Shown: piece by piece, positions 8,462 through 30,056 of the stretch
Numbering within the stretch: position 1 is the first letter of the stretch
How the letters are laid out: each line of letters begins with the position of its first letter
NCBI GenBank assembly: GCA_028286615.1
Contig: JAQBRG010000003.1
Coordinates: forward strand, 147,406 to 211,405
Direction of reading: 5' to 3'
Length of the DNA stretch: 64,000 nucleotides
Source of the DNA: Parcubacteria group bacterium
GTDB lineage: Bacteria; Patescibacteriota; Minisyncoccia; Phycocordibacterales; Phycocordibacteraceae
Translations under genes and position numbers: made by a program
The notes under the pieces: model-generated
What the model saw: the letters and a program-made list of their open reading frames with translations, nothing else
Database searches by the model: none
What the model was told of the DNA's origin: nothing

Positions 8462-8523
8462 ATACCTCTAGCCTGCAGCCTACATTGCAATTATGCAAGT
8501 AAAATGGTCTATTATAAGCATCT

Positions 8524-10002
8524 ATGGCACAAAGCACCCGACCACCGATCGTGGCCGTTATGGGTCATATTGACCACGGCAAATCATCTCTTCTGGATTA
8601 CATCCGGAAGGCTAATGTCACAGCTGGCGAAGCTGGAGGCATAACCCAGCACGTTTCAGCGTACGAAGCTGAGCACGAACACGATGGTGTTACGCGCACC
8701 ATAACCTTCCTCGACACTCCAGGACACGAGGCCTTTCGTGCACTTCGCGCTCGCGGAGCAGCAGCGGCTGATGTTGCTATTCTCGTGCTCGCTTCAGACG
8801 AAGGGGTGAAGCCTCAGACGCTTGAAGCATACGAAGCAATAACCGAGTCTGGTATTCCTTTCGTTGTTGCGCTAACCAAGATGGACAAGAACGGTGCTGA
8901 TGTTGAGAAAGCAAAACTCTCAGCACTTGAGCACGGCATATACCTTGAAGGACTTGGAGGCTCCATTCCCTTTGCAGCAGTGTCTTCAAAGACGGGAGAA
9001 GGAGTTCCAGAGCTTCTCGATCTCGTGCTTATAACAGCAGACCTTGCAGAACTAACCGCAGACCCAGACGCTCCTGCAAGCGGATTCATTCTTGAATCTT
9101 CTCAGGATCCAAAACAGGGTCTTGCCGCCACGCTTATCCTTAAAGAAGGAACGCTTAACACCGGGGACTTTGTTATTGCCGGAAACGCCATTGCTCCCGT
9201 TCGCTTTATTGAAGACTTCAAAGGTGCCCGTCTAGCGAAAGCTATTGCGTCCCAGCCTATTCGTATTTCAGGCTTTTCTATGCAACCGCCTGCAGGCACT
9301 CCGTTCGCTTCTACAAGCAACAAGAAGGAAGCTGAAAAGCTCGCTGCTATGACAGAAACTGCTCCTGCTAAAGTTCGTGACGCTATTACCGAGAACGGAC
9401 ACGCCGTACTTCCTATCATTCTTAAAGCAGACGTAACCGGAAGCATTGAAGCCATCAAGCATGAGCTCGCAAAGATTGCTCATGACCGCGTAAAGGTACG
9501 CATTGTAATTGAAGGTATCGGAGCTGTTGCTGAGAACGATGTGAAGACCGCGCAGTCTGCAGGAGGCACTATTATCGCCTTCCATGTACCGACCGCTTCT
9601 TCTGCTCGCGATCTGGCAGAACGCACAGGCGTAACCATCGATACCTACGACATTATCTACGAACTCAAAGAGCGCGTGGAAGAACTCGTAAAGGAACGTG
9701 CACCTAAGATAACAACGGAAGAACTTCTTGGAGAGGCAAAGGTGCTTAAAGTGTTTAGCTCAGGCGGCAACAAGCAGACTCTTGGTGCTCGTTGGATCTC
9801 TGGCGCCCTAACCGTTGGCAATACCGTTAAGATAGACCGTCGTGGTATTCACGTAGGCAACGCAAAGCTAACCAATCTCCAGGTTGCTCGTTCAGATGTT
9901 AAAGAGATTCATATCGAAGGAGAGTTTGGTCTTCAGATTGAAGGCAAGTACGAAGCAGCTGCAGGAGACTCTCTTATCGCCTTCCGCATGACCGAAAGCT
10001 AA
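8524..10002 (+). CDS. infB: translation initiation factor IF-2 (short form, G domain to C-terminus)
   Basis: G1 motif GHIDHGKSSLLD, DTPGHEAF, TKMDK. Followed by rbfA as in the canonical operon. Only 492 aa, so it lacks N-terminal domains. Confidence 0.9.
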   Translation: MAQSTRPPIVAVMGHIDHGKSSLLDYIRKANVTAGEAGGITQHVSAYEAEHEHDGVTRTITFLDTPGHEAFRALRARGAAAADVAILVLASDEGVKPQTLEAYEAITESGIPFVVALTKMDKNGADVEKAKLSALEHGIYLEGLGGSIPFAAVSSKTGEGVPELLDLVLITADLAELTADPDAPASGFILESSQDPKQGLAATLILKEGTLNTGDFVIAGNAIAPVRFIEDFKGARLAKAIASQPIRISGFSMQPPAGTPFASTSNKKEAEKLAAMTETAPAKVRDAITENGHAVLPIILKADVTGSIEAIKHELAKIAHDRVKVRIVIEGIGAVAENDVKTAQSAGGTIIAFHVPTASSARDLAERTGVTIDTYDIIYELKERVEELVKERAPKITTEELLGEAKVLKVFSSGGNKQTLGARWISGALTVGNTVKIDRRGIHVGNAKLTNLQVARSDVKEIHIEGEFGLQIEGKYEAAAGDSLIAFRMTES

Positions 10003-12400: not shown

Positions 12401-12481
12401 GCTGGAGTGGCGAAATGGTATACGCGCTTGCCTTAGGAGCAGGTCCCTTCGGGGGTGGAGGTTCAAGTCCTCTCTCCAGCA
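12401..12481 (+). tRNA. tRNA-Leu (TAG), type II
   Basis: Acceptor GCTGGAG/CTCCAGC, anticodon stem CTTGC/GCAGG with loop CTTAGGA, long variable arm CCC-TTCG-GGG, T-loop TTCAAGT. Confidence 0.75.
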
Positions 12482-12564
12482 CACTTGACAATACTTGGTA
12501 TTGTGTGATATATTTTAAAGTGGAAGACATTGCTATTTGATGTCCAAATGAAAGGTTCAATCTC

Positions 12565-25895: not shown

Positions 25896-27041
25896 ATGCC
25901 TGAAGAAACCGCTTCCCCGGAGGCGCTTGAGGAGCGTAAGCCCTCAGCTCCGGTAAGCACTATTACAATTGAACCCGGCCATCCAATGGCGGGGATGATT
26001 GACGCTATCGTCACTCCTCCTCGTGTTGGAGACTTGGTTGAAGGAACCATAATCGAGCTCGTCCGCGGACGTCTCTATGTAGACCTTCCTCCATTTGGTA
26101 CGGGTATTATCTACGGCCGCGAGTATCTCAACGCTGCAGACGTGCTTCGCAAGGCAAACCCTGGAGACACCATAACCGCAAAGGTTGTGGACGTTGCTGG
26201 TATCGAAGGATACATCGAGCTTTCCCTTAAGGAGGCTCGCCAGGCAGCTATCTGGGGCGAGGCTGAGCAGGCTATCGTTGCACAGACCATCTACAACATT
26301 CCTGTTGAAGAAGCCAACAAGGGCGGTCTTATCCTTTCATGGCAGGGCATCCAGGGATTCCTTCCTGCATCCCAGCTTTCAAAGGACCACTACCCACGTG
26401 TTCCTGAGGGAGACAAGGACAAGATCTTCTCTGAACTTCAGAAGCTTGCCGGCGTATCTCTCGCCGTTCGCATCATCACAGCCGATCCTAAGGAAGGAAA
26501 GCTTATCTTCTCTGAGCGTGTTGGAGACGAGGAGCAGGAGAAGGCAAACCTCGTAGACAAGTACCAGGTTGGCGATGTTGTTGAGGGAGAAGTTACAGGA
26601 GCTGTAGACTTCGGTGTCTTTGTGAAGCTTGAGACCGGACTTGAAGGACTCGTACACATCTCAGAGCTCGATTGGGGACTCGTTGAAGACCCACGCGTAC
26701 TCTTCAAGGTTGGCGACGCCGTTAAGGTTAAGGTTATTGAAGTTAAGGACGGAAAGATCTCTCTTTCTATCAAGGCACTCAAGGAGAACCCTTGGAAGAC
26801 CGCTTCAGACCGTTACAAGAAGGGTATGGATGTTACCGGCGTTATCATCAAGTACAACAAGCACGGTGCACTCGCTTCTATTGAAGAAGGCGTTGCCGGT
26901 CTCGTACACATCAGCGAGTTCGCTACTCCAGCAGAACTCCGCGAGACACTTGAACTTGGAAAGACGTATCCGTTCAGCATTACCCTCTTCGAACCAAAGG
27001 ACCAGCGCATGACGCTCTCCATGATTGAGAAGAAGAAATAA
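25896..27041 (+). CDS. rpsA: 30S ribosomal protein S1 (four S1-domain form)
   Basis: Repeated S1 domains (GxV.G.V....fGvFV.L..g.eGLvHiSE). 381 aa. Confidence 0.9.
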   Translation: MPEETASPEALEERKPSAPVSTITIEPGHPMAGMIDAIVTPPRVGDLVEGTIIELVRGRLYVDLPPFGTGIIYGREYLNAADVLRKANPGDTITAKVVDVAGIEGYIELSLKEARQAAIWGEAEQAIVAQTIYNIPVEEANKGGLILSWQGIQGFLPASQLSKDHYPRVPEGDKDKIFSELQKLAGVSLAVRIITADPKEGKLIFSERVGDEEQEKANLVDKYQVGDVVEGEVTGAVDFGVFVKLETGLEGLVHISELDWGLVEDPRVLFKVGDAVKVKVIEVKDGKISLSIKALKENPWKTASDRYKKGMDVTGVIIKYNKHGALASIEEGVAGLVHISEFATPAELRETLELGKTYPFSITLFEPKDQRMTLSMIEKKK

Positions 27042-27056
27042 GGAAGACAGATAAAA

Positions 27057-27090
27057 GAAACCCCCGACTTGGTCGGGGGTTTCTTTTATT
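27057..27090. terminator. bidirectional terminator between rpsA and pth
   Basis: GAAACCCCCGAC-TTG-GTCGGGGGTTTC flanked by A-runs and T-runs. Confidence 0.8.
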
Positions 27091-27688
27091 TCGCAGTGTT
27101 CGCTTCGAGCATCGCTTTCTCTATCCCGTCTGTTACGAAATACCTCGCAGCAACAGCAGCGCGCTTGAGTACCTTCTTAAGCTCAGCCTCTTCAGTTGGT
27201 TTGAACTTCCCTATTACGTGATTGATTACCCTGTCTTCTCCCGAAACCTTCTTAACTTTTCCTTTTGCAGTTGCGCCTGAGATGCCAATCTTCATCTGAG
27301 CGAATTCCTTGGTCTTGAGAGTGCGCATAACGCTTTCGATACCTTTGTGTCCTCCGCTACCTCGTCCAAAGGTTGTCATCTTGATAGTACCGAGAGGAAG
27401 ATCTAGTTCGTCTCGGATAATAAGAAGTTTCTTAGCGGCTGGCTTGCTGCGCACAAGTGCTGCTGCGGATGTGCCCGAGTGGTTCATATATACCTCGGGA
27501 AGTACGATACTAACCTTCTCTCCTCCTATAGTTCCTTCTGCAACAAGTGCTTGAGCCGTCTTCTTAAGTTTGAAATCTGTAAATCCTTCTTCTGAAGCCA
27601 GGAGTTCTGCAACCATGCGCCCAGCGTTATGCCGGGTTTTTGCGTATTCGCCTCCGGGATTCCCAAGACCCATGATTACGTATGCCAT
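27086..27688 (-). CDS. pth: peptidyl-tRNA hydrolase
   Basis: N-terminal GLGNPGGEYAKTRHNAG and catalytic His region. 200 aa. Confidence 0.9.
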   Translation of the reverse strand: MAYVIMGLGNPGGEYAKTRHNAGRMVAELLASEEGFTDFKLKKTAQALVAEGTIGGEKVSIVLPEVYMNHSGTSAAALVRSKPAAKKLLIIRDELDLPLGTIKMTTFGRGSGGHKGIESVMRTLKTKEFAQMKIGISGATAKGKVKKVSGEDRVINHVIGKFKPTEEAELKKVLKRAAVAARYFVTDGIEKAMLEANTAK

Positions 27689-27721
27689 TAGAAAGATTGT
27701 ATCAGGTTTAAGAAAAAGGAT

Positions 27722-27749
27722 TTGACTAGAGAGTATGGGAGCGTATAAT
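27722..27749 (+). promoter_or_regulatory. near-consensus sigma70-type promoter (TTGACT-16 nt-TATAAT)
   Basis: Seen directly. Points away from pth toward the 3' end of the convergent MazF-like gene. Confidence 0.6.
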
Positions 27750-27756
27750 TCTTATA

Positions 27757-27875
27757 CAAATGCCGAGAGGCATCGGAGACTTCTGGCGCGAGCTGGGAGA
27801 TCGCAAGCCAACGAAGGTCACGTACCGTCGTTGGCCAAAATAGCAACAAGCCCCTGTTATGCAGGGGCTTGTTGG
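27757..27875 (+). ncRNA. candidate ~120-nt sRNA (promoter to terminator unit); alternatively a 27-aa micro-ORF MPRGIGDFWRELGDRKPTKVTYRRWPK
   Basis: Bounded by the promoter above and the hairpin AAGCCCCTG-ttat-CAGGGGCTT at 27848-27869. No SD before the internal ATG. Confidence 0.3.
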
Positions 27876-28262
27876 TTAAAATAAAAGTCTTTTGATTCTT
27901 TCTTTCATTAAGGAGAAGTCTGGCCGATTCATCTTTCCTATGTAGCGGTTAAATCTCTTCGTGCTTATTAAGTGCACATGAGTTATTAAAGCCACCCATT
28001 TATCACCTTTATTTTCAAATAAAAAATAATAAGGGAGATCTTTAAAGGTTGAGGTTGTGGGTACGATGAGTGCCAGACCTTTTCCAAACGTTTTGAGCAC
28101 AATTATTGGCCTTTCGTATAAGGCTTTCTTACCGTCTTGCTCGTCGCCTATATTTAAGCCTACTGAGCACCACCATATATCTCGCTCATACACGATCAAC
28201 TCAGATTTTTCTTCTTCTATTCTTTTCTTCTGCTCATTCCACGCATCAAAATCCTTTTGCAT
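27876..28262 (-). CDS. MazF/PemK/Kid-family endoribonuclease toxin-like protein, AT-rich, no cognate antitoxin gene seen
   Basis: ERDIWWCSVGLNIGDEQDGKKALYERPIIVLK...LIVPTTS matches the MazF/PemK pattern (DIVW..., G.EQ.G.RP.VVL, V.P.TS). AT-rich. Confidence 0.7.
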   Translation of the reverse strand: MQKDFDAWNEQKKRIEEEKSELIVYERDIWWCSVGLNIGDEQDGKKALYERPIIVLKTFGKGLALIVPTTSTFKDLPYYFLFENKGDKWVALITHVHLISTKRFNRYIGKMNRPDFSLMKERIKRLLF

Positions 28263-28353
28263 TGCACTAACCTACAATATTGCGATATGAACAAGATGGT
28301 CGCGTAATAAGAAAAAGTTGACGCGCCGAAAGAGAGGAATACAATGAGCGGTA

Positions 28354-28893
28354 ATGCGAACCTTGCGAGAGATACTTTCATTCGTCATCCTCGCCGTCAT
28401 CATTGTTGTTCCTATCCGTTTGTTCATCGCTCAACCATTCGTTGTTGAAGGTGAAAGCATGCATCCTACGTTTGAAAGCGCTGACTATCTCATCGTTGAC
28501 GAACTCTCCTACCATCTCCACGCACCGCAACGCGGCGACGTTATTGTTTTTAGATATCCAAACGATCCGAAAGTGTTTTACATAAAGCGCATCATCGGTC
28601 TTCCTGGAGAAACCGTGAGTGTTAAGGATGGGAAGACAACTGTTAAGAAAGTTGATGGTACTGAAATCGCACTTGATGAGCCGTACGTAGTCTCTGAAGA
28701 CGCCACATACACCAACGACAGCGTTCTTGGTGCAGACCAGTACTTTGTTATGGGAGACAACCGTCCTCGCAGCTCAGATTCTCGTATCTGGGGACCACTC
28801 CCTAAGAAAGATATTGTAGGTCGTGCTTTCATACGCCTTCTTCCTGCAGGATCAATAGGTATTCTTCCCGGAAGAATCGAACTACCACAATGA
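28354..28893 (+). CDS. lepB: signal peptidase I
   Basis: S26 motifs GESMHPT (Ser box), RGDVIVF, GDNRPRSSDSR. Confidence 0.85.
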   Translation: MRTLREILSFVILAVIIVVPIRLFIAQPFVVEGESMHPTFESADYLIVDELSYHLHAPQRGDVIVFRYPNDPKVFYIKRIIGLPGETVSVKDGKTTVKKVDGTEIALDEPYVVSEDATYTNDSVLGADQYFVMGDNRPRSSDSRIWGPLPKKDIVGRAFIRLLPAGSIGILPGRIELPQ

Positions 28894-30056
28894 GTACAAC
28901 CGCCTCCGTACCTGCCGGCGTACGGCCAGACGAACTTTTGAAGCGTGCGCACGCTATCGGCAACTATTACGGCTTCACGCCGCTTTCAGTCCTTGCTGCA
29001 AAACAGAAAGGGCATGGTGCTCGCGCTCCCTATCCTGAGAACATGGGACTGGACGCGCTGGATCCTGTTGCCCGCGAAGTTGTTACACTTCTCAAGCAAG
29101 TGCGAGACATGGGTCTAGCTCCTTCTAAAGAGCGCCCTCTCTTCCTTTGGCACTCTAATGCTGCATACGGACGTCCTGCACCTAAGCAGATAATTATCCA
29201 GTTCCATATTCTTGGTGTAGAGCATGCTATAGCTGACGCGGTACTTATTCGTGCAGTTCGGGCACTAACCATGGACTTCGCAAAAGGCGACGTACGCTTA
29301 CGTGTGAACAGTATGGGAGACAAAGAGACTCGTGGACGTTTCGCACGTGAACTTGGCACCTTCTTCAGAAAGCATGGAGCAACTCTTCCTGCAGACTGCG
29401 TTTCTTGCGCACGCACCGACGTGTTCCAGGCAGCGGAGCTTCTTGTATCAAACAAGGATGCAGAACTCCCTTCTCCAACAGACCATCTTTCTGAAGCCAG
29501 CCGCAAACATTTTGAGAATGTTCTTGAATACCTTGAAGAGACCGAGACTCCGTACGAACTTTCTCCAGATCTCCTTTCTCGCGGTACCGCGTGGAGCGAA
29601 ACCTGCTTTGAGATAACAGGCAACAGCGGAGCGCTTCCATTTCATGCATGGGGTTCACGATATTCAGAACTTGCTCGTCCTTTCTGGAAGAGTCCAGGAA
29701 CGTCTATTGGTGCGGTTATTCGTATCCAGACTGAAGGACGCGAGACTATCGCTCCTATTAAAGAACGTACGAATCCTCGTTTCGTATTCGTACACATTGG
29801 AGACGAAGCAAAGCGCGAGAGTATGAAGATGGCAGACGATCTCCGTCGTGCACGTATTCCTATGACCCAAGCAATTGGCATCGCCTCTCTTACCGAACAG
29901 ATGCGTCTTGTTGATGAGACCGATCCTCCATACCTGCTTATTATGGGTCGCAAGGAAGCTCTAGACCGCTCCGTTATTCTTCGTGAGCGCGCTACTTACA
30001 CCGAGTCTGTTATTCCTCTTGATTCTCTTATAGATAGATTGAAGATGGTTGCGTAA
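28890..30056 (+). CDS. histidyl-tRNA synthetase-like protein with degenerate catalytic motifs (HisZ-like paralog or highly divergent HisRS)
   Basis: C-terminal class-IIa anticodon-binding domain (RFVFVHIGDEAKRESMKMADDLRRARIP...LLIMGRKEALDRSVILRER). Middle resembles HisRS (VNSMGD..R..F..L). Motif 2 region reads LFLWHSNAAYGRP instead of FRYERPQxGRxR. ATGA overlap with lepB. Confidence 0.6.
   Translation: MSTTASVPAGVRPDELLKRAHAIGNYYGFTPLSVLAAKQKGHGARAPYPENMGLDALDPVAREVVTLLKQVRDMGLAPSKERPLFLWHSNAAYGRPAPKQIIIQFHILGVEHAIADAVLIRAVRALTMDFAKGDVRLRVNSMGDKETRGRFARELGTFFRKHGATLPADCVSCARTDVFQAAELLVSNKDAELPSPTDHLSEASRKHFENVLEYLEETETPYELSPDLLSRGTAWSETCFEITGNSGALPFHAWGSRYSELARPFWKSPGTSIGAVIRIQTEGRETIAPIKERTNPRFVFVHIGDEAKRESMKMADDLRRARIPMTQAIGIASLTEQMRLVDETDPPYLLIMGRKEALDRSVILRERATYTESVIPLDSLIDRLKMVA

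Follow-up and report, generated by a model that had tools for sequence, protein, structure and literature searches.

A 64,000-nucleotide stretch of DNA from a Parcubacteria group bacterium (the window) carries a solitary gene of the MazF/PemK toxin type at positions 27876-28262 of the minus strand, and facing its 3' end is the predicted gene of a structured small RNA (27756-27880, plus strand). Since the pairing of this kind of toxin with this kind of RNA recurs in most of 84 related loci, we read the RNA as the toxin's antidote. Most likely, the convergent RNA serves as the antitoxin in place of a MazE protein. We propose that the two genes form a horizontally acquired RNA-antidote toxin cassette in which the RNA acts by 3' antisense pairing, and we give this reading a probability of about 50%. 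From sequence comparison, we infer the function of an RNA-antidote toxin system on a "type II" toxin fold.

The toxin and its subfamily

The gene order at the site is pth (27086-27688, minus strand), toxin (27876-28262, minus strand), and lepB (28354-28893, plus strand). The initial annotation, made from the letters of the sequence, had called the middle gene MazF/PemK-like, and profile and structure comparisons bear this out. The 128-residue product matched PemK_toxin (PF02452) and no other Pfam family, with 31.3 bits (cutoff 23.1; E = 2.5e-7) over profile positions 3-109 of 109. An AlphaFold model (AF2; predicted local distance difference test score, pLDDT, of 85) has the MazF fold with an additional N-terminal helix at residues 5-17. 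When this model was compared to the PDB with Foldseek, the best match was E. coli MazF (5ckd_B; E = 4.8e-7; template modeling scores of 0.69/0.79), and the 50 best matches listed were all MazF-type toxin chains, which share the SH3-like barrel of MazF and Kid. Toxin residue R51 aligns with R29 of E. coli MazF and T70 with T52, the catalytic Arg and Thr. These equivalents, which had been suggested as a check on the assignment, are conserved throughout the subfamily: position 51 is R and position 70 is T or S in 37/37 sequences, and E41 is likewise found in 37/37.

The 37 aligned homologues are 126-151 residues long and can be aligned over their full length, with W8, K12, G35, N37, G39, E41, R51, and R103 invariant. 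A conserved N-terminal helix motif, MQKDFDxWNxxKK, marks them as a distinct MazF/PemK subfamily, and this N-terminal extension is not present in canonical MazF. A search with the subfamily peptide N[IV]GxEQDGK found relatives in 502 species-representative genomes. The majority of these were Patescibacteria, and the other carriers were Rickettsiales, Campylobacterota, Margulisbacteria, Bdellovibrionales, and one Trueperaceae genome. When 1.84 billion cluster representatives were searched with a profile, 576 proteins were found at E≤1e-30 (these are clusters at 50% identity) and 2052 at E≤1e-10. The label given by NCBI to family members is "type II toxin-antitoxin system PemK/MazF family toxin".

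No protein partner was found for these toxins, and the gene was solitary in all loci that were examined. The lepB gene is divergent from the toxin gene and starts at 28354, 91 nucleotides away from the toxin ATG, close to the 90 or so that had been estimated, and an upstream antitoxin open reading frame (ORF) therefore has no space. Across the family, the median gap from the toxin to the upstream ORF of at least 90 residues is 87 nucleotides. The genomic neighbors were unlike in every locus examined (ftsA/ftsZ, pheT, rpsB-tsf, ABC transporters, and others). When 1422 flanking ORFs of at least 25 residues from about 80 loci were clustered by blastp, no family occurred in more than 3 loci, and neither a MazE-like gene nor any other conserved small ORF partner was found in those loci. 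A protein antitoxin was thus rejected as a candidate, given the lack of upstream space, the lack of a recurrent flanking ORF, and the lack of a family match for the 27-residue and 49-residue ORFs of the plus strand.

The start region of the window toxin gene has no Shine-Dalgarno motif before the ATG. A weak -10-like hexamer, TAGGTT (28269-28274, minus strand), lies 6 nucleotides 5' of the ATG and probably gives a leaderless toxin mRNA. The same arrangement is common in the family, as the hexamer TAnnnT was found 5-10 nucleotides before the start codon in 42/80 toxin genes (18.3 expected), 19 of which also have the extended TG, and a Shine-Dalgarno-like motif was found in just 8/80. This pattern indicates that family toxin mRNAs are usually leaderless. 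Because -10-like hexamers lie near the start codons and Shine-Dalgarno motifs are few, the cassette seems to be built for host-independent leaderless expression.

The convergent RNA in the family and in the window

The intergenic regions of 66 family loci were used to count promoters, and 84 non-redundant loci were examined for RNA. On the convergent strand, a sigma-70 match of at least 10/12 positions was found downstream of the toxin in 33/66 loci, compared to 2.9 expected; the toxin-strand control gave 3 such matches vs 3.0 expected. Most family loci have the promoter type TTGAC(A/T)-16/17-TAnnnT on the convergent strand. In most loci the -10 box ends 50-74 nucleotides beyond the toxin stop codon, and a second class of positions lies about 105-128 nucleotides beyond it, which is the class to which the window belongs (127 nucleotides). 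From 5' to 3', the RNA behind these promoters consists of an unpaired UACAAAU(G), a hairpin P1 of the GGCC-NNNN-GGCC type, an unpaired YCCGA, a GC-rich hairpin P2, and a G followed by a U-tract. In the short form of the RNA, the U-tract after P2 is on the RNA strand only and runs into the reverse complement of the toxin stop codon.

Covariance models were used to count the RNA. Model R1, built from 18 MAFFT-aligned RNAs, gave 50 matches at E<0.002 in 427 kb of family loci, and 50/50 were on the convergent strand. Model R2, built from these 50 matches, gave 62 matches at E<0.005, again all convergent, and it had no match in six control loci from pth relatives. The matches adjoin the toxin stop codon in 52/84 non-redundant loci, most often at an offset of -3 to -1 nucleotides. 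Three more loci have an abutting RNA next to toxin ORFs that are truncated under genetic code 11, for a total of 55. About 15-18 further loci have RNAs of other subtypes that share the promoter and an ACAA 5' motif, and a convergent consensus promoter lies just beyond the stop codon in about 70/84.

The base pairs of the RNA covary. In the model-fitted alignment, 93.1% of cells were paired vs 74.0±1.0% in shuffled alignments and at most 67% in slid controls, and there were 111 compensatory cells vs 26±4 shuffled. The seed aligned by MAFFT only gave 84.0% paired vs 73.7%, with 23 compensatory cells vs 6.7. P1 changes among family members between GGAC/GUCC, GGUC/GACC, and CGGC/GCCG. G-U pairs outnumber A-C mismatches (21 vs 8), and this excess, together with the promoter and the U-tract, fixes the RNA strand. 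The unpaired motifs and both hairpins are kept though the toxins are only 35-50% identical. The AUG of the 5' motif is missing in about one fifth of the family RNAs (e.g., loci L086, L065, L078, L088, L076, L067, L055, and L092) and is therefore not a conserved start codon. When typical family loci were searched with Rfam 15, none of 20 loci had a match at the gathering threshold, and none of 12 matched the pemK motif RF02913 at E up to 5.

Five copies of the RNA were found away from any family toxin 3' end (L040:3920-3991, L015:3830-3887, L041:1536-1599, L079:37-104, and L082:3183-3262). The contexts of these stray copies include a position after a 116-residue membrane-protein ORF, one over the 3' end of an IS200/RayT-like ORF, and one with no adjacent ORF. 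Others lie upstream of and divergent from a toxin at a contig end, or about 290 nucleotides downstream of a toxin. A Kaiserbacteria locus (L035; MFMU01000004.1, 22-3867) has four tandem toxin paralogues within 4 kb, and R2 finds RNAs at two of the four paralogues only, overlapping the 3' ends of those ORFs.

Family members are also carried on mobile elements. With tblastn, they were found on the Campylobacter jejuni 81-176 plasmid pVir, Helicobacter plasmids, Nitratiruptor plasmids, and the Campylobacter prophage CJIE4, in all cases annotated as PemK/MazF toxins. The pVir member (WP_011117588.1) is 38% identical and has the N-terminal motif KFDEWNEVKK. Its gene (NC_005012.1, 30630-31034) is followed downstream by TTGATT-17-TGATATAAT, a promoter on the convergent strand, and by three hairpins. 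Four cases were examined, the prophage CJIE4 and three plasmids (pVir, one of Helicobacter suis, and one of Nitratiruptor), and 4/4 have an extended -10 box on the convergent strand downstream of the toxin gene; in the plasmids, hairpins come after it. The pVir RNA had no match to model R2. Cultivable carriers, besides C. jejuni 81-176, are H. suis with plasmid pSNTW101c_2, Nitratiruptor sp. YY08-14, and isolates of Sulfurospirillum or Sulfurimonas.

In the window, the promoter that the initial annotation had described as near-perfect held up in a promoter scan: TTGACT-16-TATAAT (27722-27749, plus strand) agrees with the sigma-70 consensus at 11/12 positions, faces the toxin gene, and is of the type conserved in the family. 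Just two sites of at least 11/12 occur on both strands of the whole window (0.53 expected from dinucleotide shuffles). The only other one, TTGACA-18-TATATT (12485-12514, plus strand), lies directly after a tRNA-Leu gene (12401-12482). Two other origins considered for the promoter near the toxin, a chance match or a pth leader, were ruled out by its conservation in the family and by the separate extended -10 box of pth.

The predicted RNA of about 120-125 nucleotides (27756-27880, plus strand) was delimited by its fold, model R1, and a promoter profile. The conserved 5' motif UACAAAU (27755-27761), whose distance from the -10 box is constant across the family, coincides with a predicted transcription start at about 27756-27757. 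P1 (27760-27773) is formed by AUGCC and GGCAU around a GAGA loop and corresponds to the family P1. An unpaired linker, CGGA (27774-27777), takes the place of the family consensus CCGA and is followed by P2 (27778-27802), which pairs GACUUCUGGC with GCUGGGAG-A-UC around a GCGA loop, aligns to the model P2, and includes three G-U pairs that are valid on the plus strand only. A further hairpin, P3 (27807-27835), is particular to the extended copy and has no short-form counterpart. The RNA closes with a terminal hairpin of 13 base pairs at the toxin stop codon (27844-27874). Folding of 27756-27885 on the plus strand gave these four successive hairpins with a minimum free energy of -60.3 kcal/mol (z = -6.66), and 0/200 shuffles were as stable. 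GNRA tetraloops close two of the four hairpins (GAGA and GCGA). Rfam had no match in the window, in line with the check that had been suggested, and the pemK motif RF02913 was not found there at E up to 10.

The terminal hairpin had been described before as ending the toxin gene. It is present where it was placed, with arms CAACAAGCCCCTG and CAGGGGCTTGTTG; its loop has 5 nucleotides (TTATG), not 4. A T-run was found beside it by the scan on the toxin strand only (CTATTTTGG). We read the hairpin as bidirectional, since on the plus strand the lower stem gives UUGUUGGUU after the GC core, and it probably ends the toxin mRNA as well as the small RNA. It would then be the sole segment in which the two transcripts are predicted to overlap.

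Model R1 aligned to the window over its full length at 27753-27810 on the plus strand, with 11.2 bits (E = 0.0074 in a 301-nucleotide search). The aligned segments are UAUACAAAU, GCC-GAGA-GGC, AUCGGAGA, P2, and UCG. A profile of the promoter and the 5' half of the RNA, built from 55 loci, had its best match in the whole window at 27722-27782 on the plus strand (E = 0.13); another weak match, at 8485-8540, fell on the promoter that serves a leaderless gene for an initiation factor 2 (IF2)-like protein. For the compound pattern TTGAC-N16-20-TANNNT-N3-7-ACAAWTG, the window has a single match, at 27722-27762 on the plus strand (0.01 expected), and 24/141 loci have the pattern too, all of them loci of the toxin family and always on the convergent strand. 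This pattern was written after seeing both the family and the window, and it is thus a consistency check and no independent test. The window and the family share the promoter type, the 10-nucleotide gap from the -10 box to the AUG of UACAAAUG, P1, and P2. The CGGAGA...GAUCG variant is common to the window, L134, and L015. The closest toxin homologues (L134, L135, and L136) have the standard short RNA. The window RNA is like the long-form RNAs of L017, L054, and L073. In these, the role of terminator does not fall to P2; another hairpin, at the end of the RNA, adjoins the stop codon and aligns with the terminal hairpin of the window. By these comparisons, the window RNA is probably a diverged, extended member of the family.

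Insertion between pth and lepB

Relatives with a pth that is 70-77% identical retain the order of S1-domain gene, pth, lepB, and hisS-like gene. In four of them (pth 75-77% identical), pth and lepB are divergent and about 100 nucleotides apart with no toxin between them, and three others carry different cargo at the same site. This cargo is a hydrolase-like ORF, two ORFs, or a membrane-protein ORF, always oriented like pth (L093:1680-2500, L098:916-2500, and L102:1556-2500, compared to L094, L095, L099, and L103). The segment specific to the window strain, about 27706-28296, holds the toxin, the hairpins, and the plus-strand promoter. Besides an identical protein annotated in a metagenome-assembled genome of the Parcubacteria group, the next-best homologue of the toxin is 51% identical, and the pth relatives at 70-77% identity are without the cassette. 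The GC content of the toxin gene is 39-42% vs 46-53% for its neighbors. As judged from these comparisons, the toxin and RNA cassette of about 600 bp is a strain-specific insertion between pth and lepB.

Comparison with the insertion-free relatives also brought out a direct repeat, TAAGAAAAAG, on the plus strand at either side. The first copy (27709-27718) is followed by GAT and then TTGACT, and the second (28308-28317) directly by TTGACG, the lepB -35 hexamer. The repeat plus TTGAC, with or without GAT, thus flanks the insertion at 27709-27727 and 28308-28322. This suggests a duplication of the host promoter sequence, or microhomology, at insertion. One repeat copy forms the lepB -35 region and the other forms the -35 region of the small-RNA promoter.

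The pth promoter has an extended -10 box, TGATACAAT (27696-27704, minus strand), 7 nucleotides before the pth ATG. It is a host element outside the cassette and marks the lower edge of the cassette. A -10 box 6-8 nucleotides before the ATG, with no Shine-Dalgarno motif, was found for lepB (28318-28356, plus strand), pth (27686-27704, minus strand), and the gene of the IF2-like GTPase (8485-8526, plus strand), and the pth and lepB arrangements are kept in relatives L093-L103. On the basis of these -10 boxes near ATGs and the lack of Shine-Dalgarno motifs, this Parcubacteria genome appears to use leaderless mRNAs routinely.

Other searches of the window gave the following results. There is no second family toxin or family RNA elsewhere in its 64 kb, and no further copy of its intergenic sequence was found in it or in the collected loci. 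No tandem repeats were found in 27000-29000 except a TTTTC microrepeat within the toxin ORF. The PADLOC defence-system models had no meaningful match in the window.

Mode of action, alternatives, and known systems

We propose that the segment at about 27706-28296 would work as a compact, horizontally acquired two-gene cassette between the divergent, leaderless pth and lepB. One gene would make a MazF-fold endoribonuclease toxin from a weak promoter and a leaderless mRNA. The other, facing it, would use its near-consensus promoter to make a structured non-coding RNA of about 120 nucleotides that ends at the shared hairpin. This RNA, expected to be abundant, would pair with the toxin transcript at its complementary 3' end. 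In the window copy the pairing region would be the shared terminator hairpin. In typical members the toxin transcript would read through the whole RNA gene, and the entire RNA of 55-60 nucleotides would be complementary; such read-through is what should occur in the short form, as the U-tract is on the RNA strand only. The duplex would lead to cleavage and 3'-to-5' decay of the toxin mRNA, and convergent transcription may contribute interference. If the cassette were lost or its transcription stopped, the labile RNA would decay and the toxin would be freed. The leaderless toxin mRNA offers no 5' untranslated region as a target, which fits an antidote acting at the 3' end or at the protein level. 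Pairing of the RNA in trans with the toxin start region was rejected as a candidate, as it was no better than in non-cognate or shuffled controls. Transcription, toxicity, neutralization, and the antisense mode are all what we infer from the comparisons above.

Several observations weigh against this reading. The duplex between the RNA and the toxin start region had -14.0 kcal/mol for the cognate pair, -14.0 for non-cognate pairs, and -15.1 for shuffled sequences. The antisense overlap in the window copy is limited to the terminator of about 31-40 nucleotides. The unpaired UACAAAU and CCGA are conserved across phyla, which pure antisense pairing would not need and which would point to recognition by a protein. 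The window RNA is itself a weak covariance match, with 12 bits under R2 (E = 0.44 in 16 kb), and it is outscored there by the terminator at 27031-27091 (16.9 bits), from which it follows that the 3' half of R2 is largely a generic terminator. Unlike the short-form RNAs, the window RNA is without a U-tract after P2, and its linker is CGGA instead of CCGA. Finally, the window toxin has THVH at the place of the family motif SQxR (H95 for Q and H97 for R/K), and H97 is unique among the 37 aligned sequences, all others having R or K. Given H97 and H95, the window toxin may be attenuated. The terminator at 27031-27091 lies between the S1-domain gene and pth and reads AGAAACCCCCG...CGGGGGUUUCUUUU. 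THVH, which could mean an altered specificity or an attenuated toxin, stands beside an atypical RNA.

The initial annotation had proposed an orphan toxin with a convergent small-RNA partner. This proposal is well served by a solitary subfamily and a conserved, covarying RNA at the stop codon, from which the antitoxin function is deduced. Its other suggestions, an unrelated small RNA or a degenerate solitary toxin, are now unlikely given the comparative evidence. Antisense pairing is not the only way in which such an RNA might neutralize the toxin. A possible but less probable mode has the same cassette and the same antidote role, as in type III systems, with the folded RNA binding the MazF-like dimer directly. 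The unpaired UACAAAU and/or CCGA would then occupy the groove that binds RNA, as a pseudo-substrate or as a real one that stays bound after cleavage, and the N-terminal helix with its invariant W8 and K12 would grip a hairpin. This would account for unpaired motifs and hairpins that are conserved despite toxins at 35-50% identity, for the invariant N-terminal extension not found in canonical MazF, for the orphan RNA copies remote from toxin genes, and for the minimal antisense overlap in the window. UACA is also like the known MazF sites ACA and UACAU, and the type III toxin ToxN is Kid/MazF-like in its fold. The known type III antitoxins, however, are tandem repeat arrays, and there is none here. 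The RNA also lies always in cis and convergent, with the short form ending exactly at the stop codon, a placement that antisense overlap requires and binding to a protein does not, and the studied Campylobacter case is reportedly classed as type I. As a tentative idea of about the same standing, a single-copy, convergent structured RNA may directly inhibit a MazF-fold ribonuclease, with the motifs as pseudo-substrate and the N-terminal helix as an RNA-binding adaptor, which would be a widespread, hitherto unclassified kind of toxin-antitoxin system. The antisense and protein-binding modes would not be mutually exclusive.

The remaining explanations do without an RNA antidote. The toxin could be a domesticated RNA-processing nuclease, with the RNA as its substrate, its cofactor, or an unrelated travelling regulator. 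The genes often lie among housekeeping genes (ftsA/ftsZ, pheT, rpsB-tsf), and other functions have been suggested for solo homologues (Makarova et al. 2009, PMC2701414). This explanation is unlikely, as the genomic position is different in each genome, the toxin GC content is below that of its neighbors, the gene is absent at the same site in close relatives, tandem paralogue arrays exist, and plasmids and a prophage carry the gene; these observations favor a mobile selfish or defence module over a core function. It is also conceivable, at a still lower probability, that only DNA and transcription matter and that the RNA is functionless, with the convergent promoter and one-way terminator silencing or insulating the toxin. 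A consensus promoter does face the toxin gene, and the short-form terminator halts the RNA strand alone, but the covariation of P1, the conserved unpaired motifs and fixed RNA architecture, and the orphan RNA copies would be left unexplained. The internal ATG frame of 27 codons pointed out earlier was indeed found (27760-27843, plus strand), and it could in principle encode a small leaderless peptide antitoxin. Its ATG lies 10 nucleotides after the -10 box in a genome with leaderless mRNAs (lepB, pth, and the IF2-like gene), and it ends exactly at the terminal hairpin. We regard this as very improbable: the AUG is missing in about one fifth of family RNAs, compensatory stem changes rewrite the encoded peptide, neither the length nor the reading frame of the ORF is conserved, and the 27-residue peptide had no protein family match.

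An RNA antidote of the proposed antisense kind can be compared to known systems. In the type I systems txpA/RatA and bsrG/SR4 of Bacillus subtilis, the antisense RNAs are convergent and overlap the toxin transcripts at the 3' end. The likeness lies in converging toxin and RNA genes with a 3' transcript overlap, which is predicted here, and in a strong RNA promoter, a weak toxin promoter, and a predicted destabilization of the toxin mRNA. Type I toxins, in contrast, are typically small hydrophobic membrane peptides, whereas the toxin here is a soluble MazF-fold ribonuclease of 128 residues; the RNA has motifs and a covarying structure conserved across phyla; and the overlap in the window is only the shared terminator. 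Type III systems (ToxIN, CptIN, and TenpIN) likewise pair a Kid/MazF-class endoribonuclease with a structured non-coding RNA, are located on mobile elements, and make a role in phage defence plausible. Their antitoxins are tandem arrays upstream on the same strand with a terminator between, whereas the RNA here is a single copy on the opposite strand, downstream of the toxin gene, whose product falls in Pfam PemK_toxin and not in a ToxN-type family. Toxins of the type II systems MazEF, PemIK, and Kid-Kis share their fold and the positions of the catalytic Arg and Thr with the toxin here. These systems differ in that about 80 loci here have no adjacent MazE/PemI/Kis gene or conserved protein partner, the partner being an RNA, and in the extra conserved N-terminal helix and leaderless monocistronic toxin mRNA found here. 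The Rfam pemK motif RF02913 shares with our RNA a conserved structure tied to PemK-family genes. That motif is reportedly located 5' of Firmicutes pemK genes, unlike the RNA described here, and it had no match in the window or in the family loci tested. An RNA antitoxin, cjrA, is said to neutralize the toxin cjpT on C. jejuni pVir and to have been classed as type I. Since pVir carries a subfamily member, which may be cjpT, cjrA/cjpT may be an experimental precedent.

In full-text literature searches, no account of a MazF-family toxin paired with a convergent RNA came up. To our knowledge, the RNA has not been described before, neither as a family-wide element nor in its conserved structure, and its dominance in Patescibacteria is also new. 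Databases file MazF/PemK toxins as type II, that is, as neutralized by proteins, and many solo genes are unexplained. In the largest families of toxins and antitoxins, more than half of the genes are solo, and small-RNA antitoxins have been raised as a possibility for solo toxins (Makarova et al. 2009, PMC2701414). A whole MazF subfamily paired with a conserved small RNA would account for one large set of orphan toxins in a way that experiments can test. The finding blurs the boundaries between types I, II, and III and adds an RNA family absent from Rfam. The cassette, with its consensus promoters and leaderless toxin mRNA, would be compact (about 500 bp) and host-independent, and its carriage on Campylobacter and Helicobacter plasmids and a prophage makes experiments feasible. 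If the RNA does bind the toxin, hidden RNA partners may exist for many "orphan" type II toxins, and the Patescibacteria, which are largely without CRISPR, may use such modules for defence.

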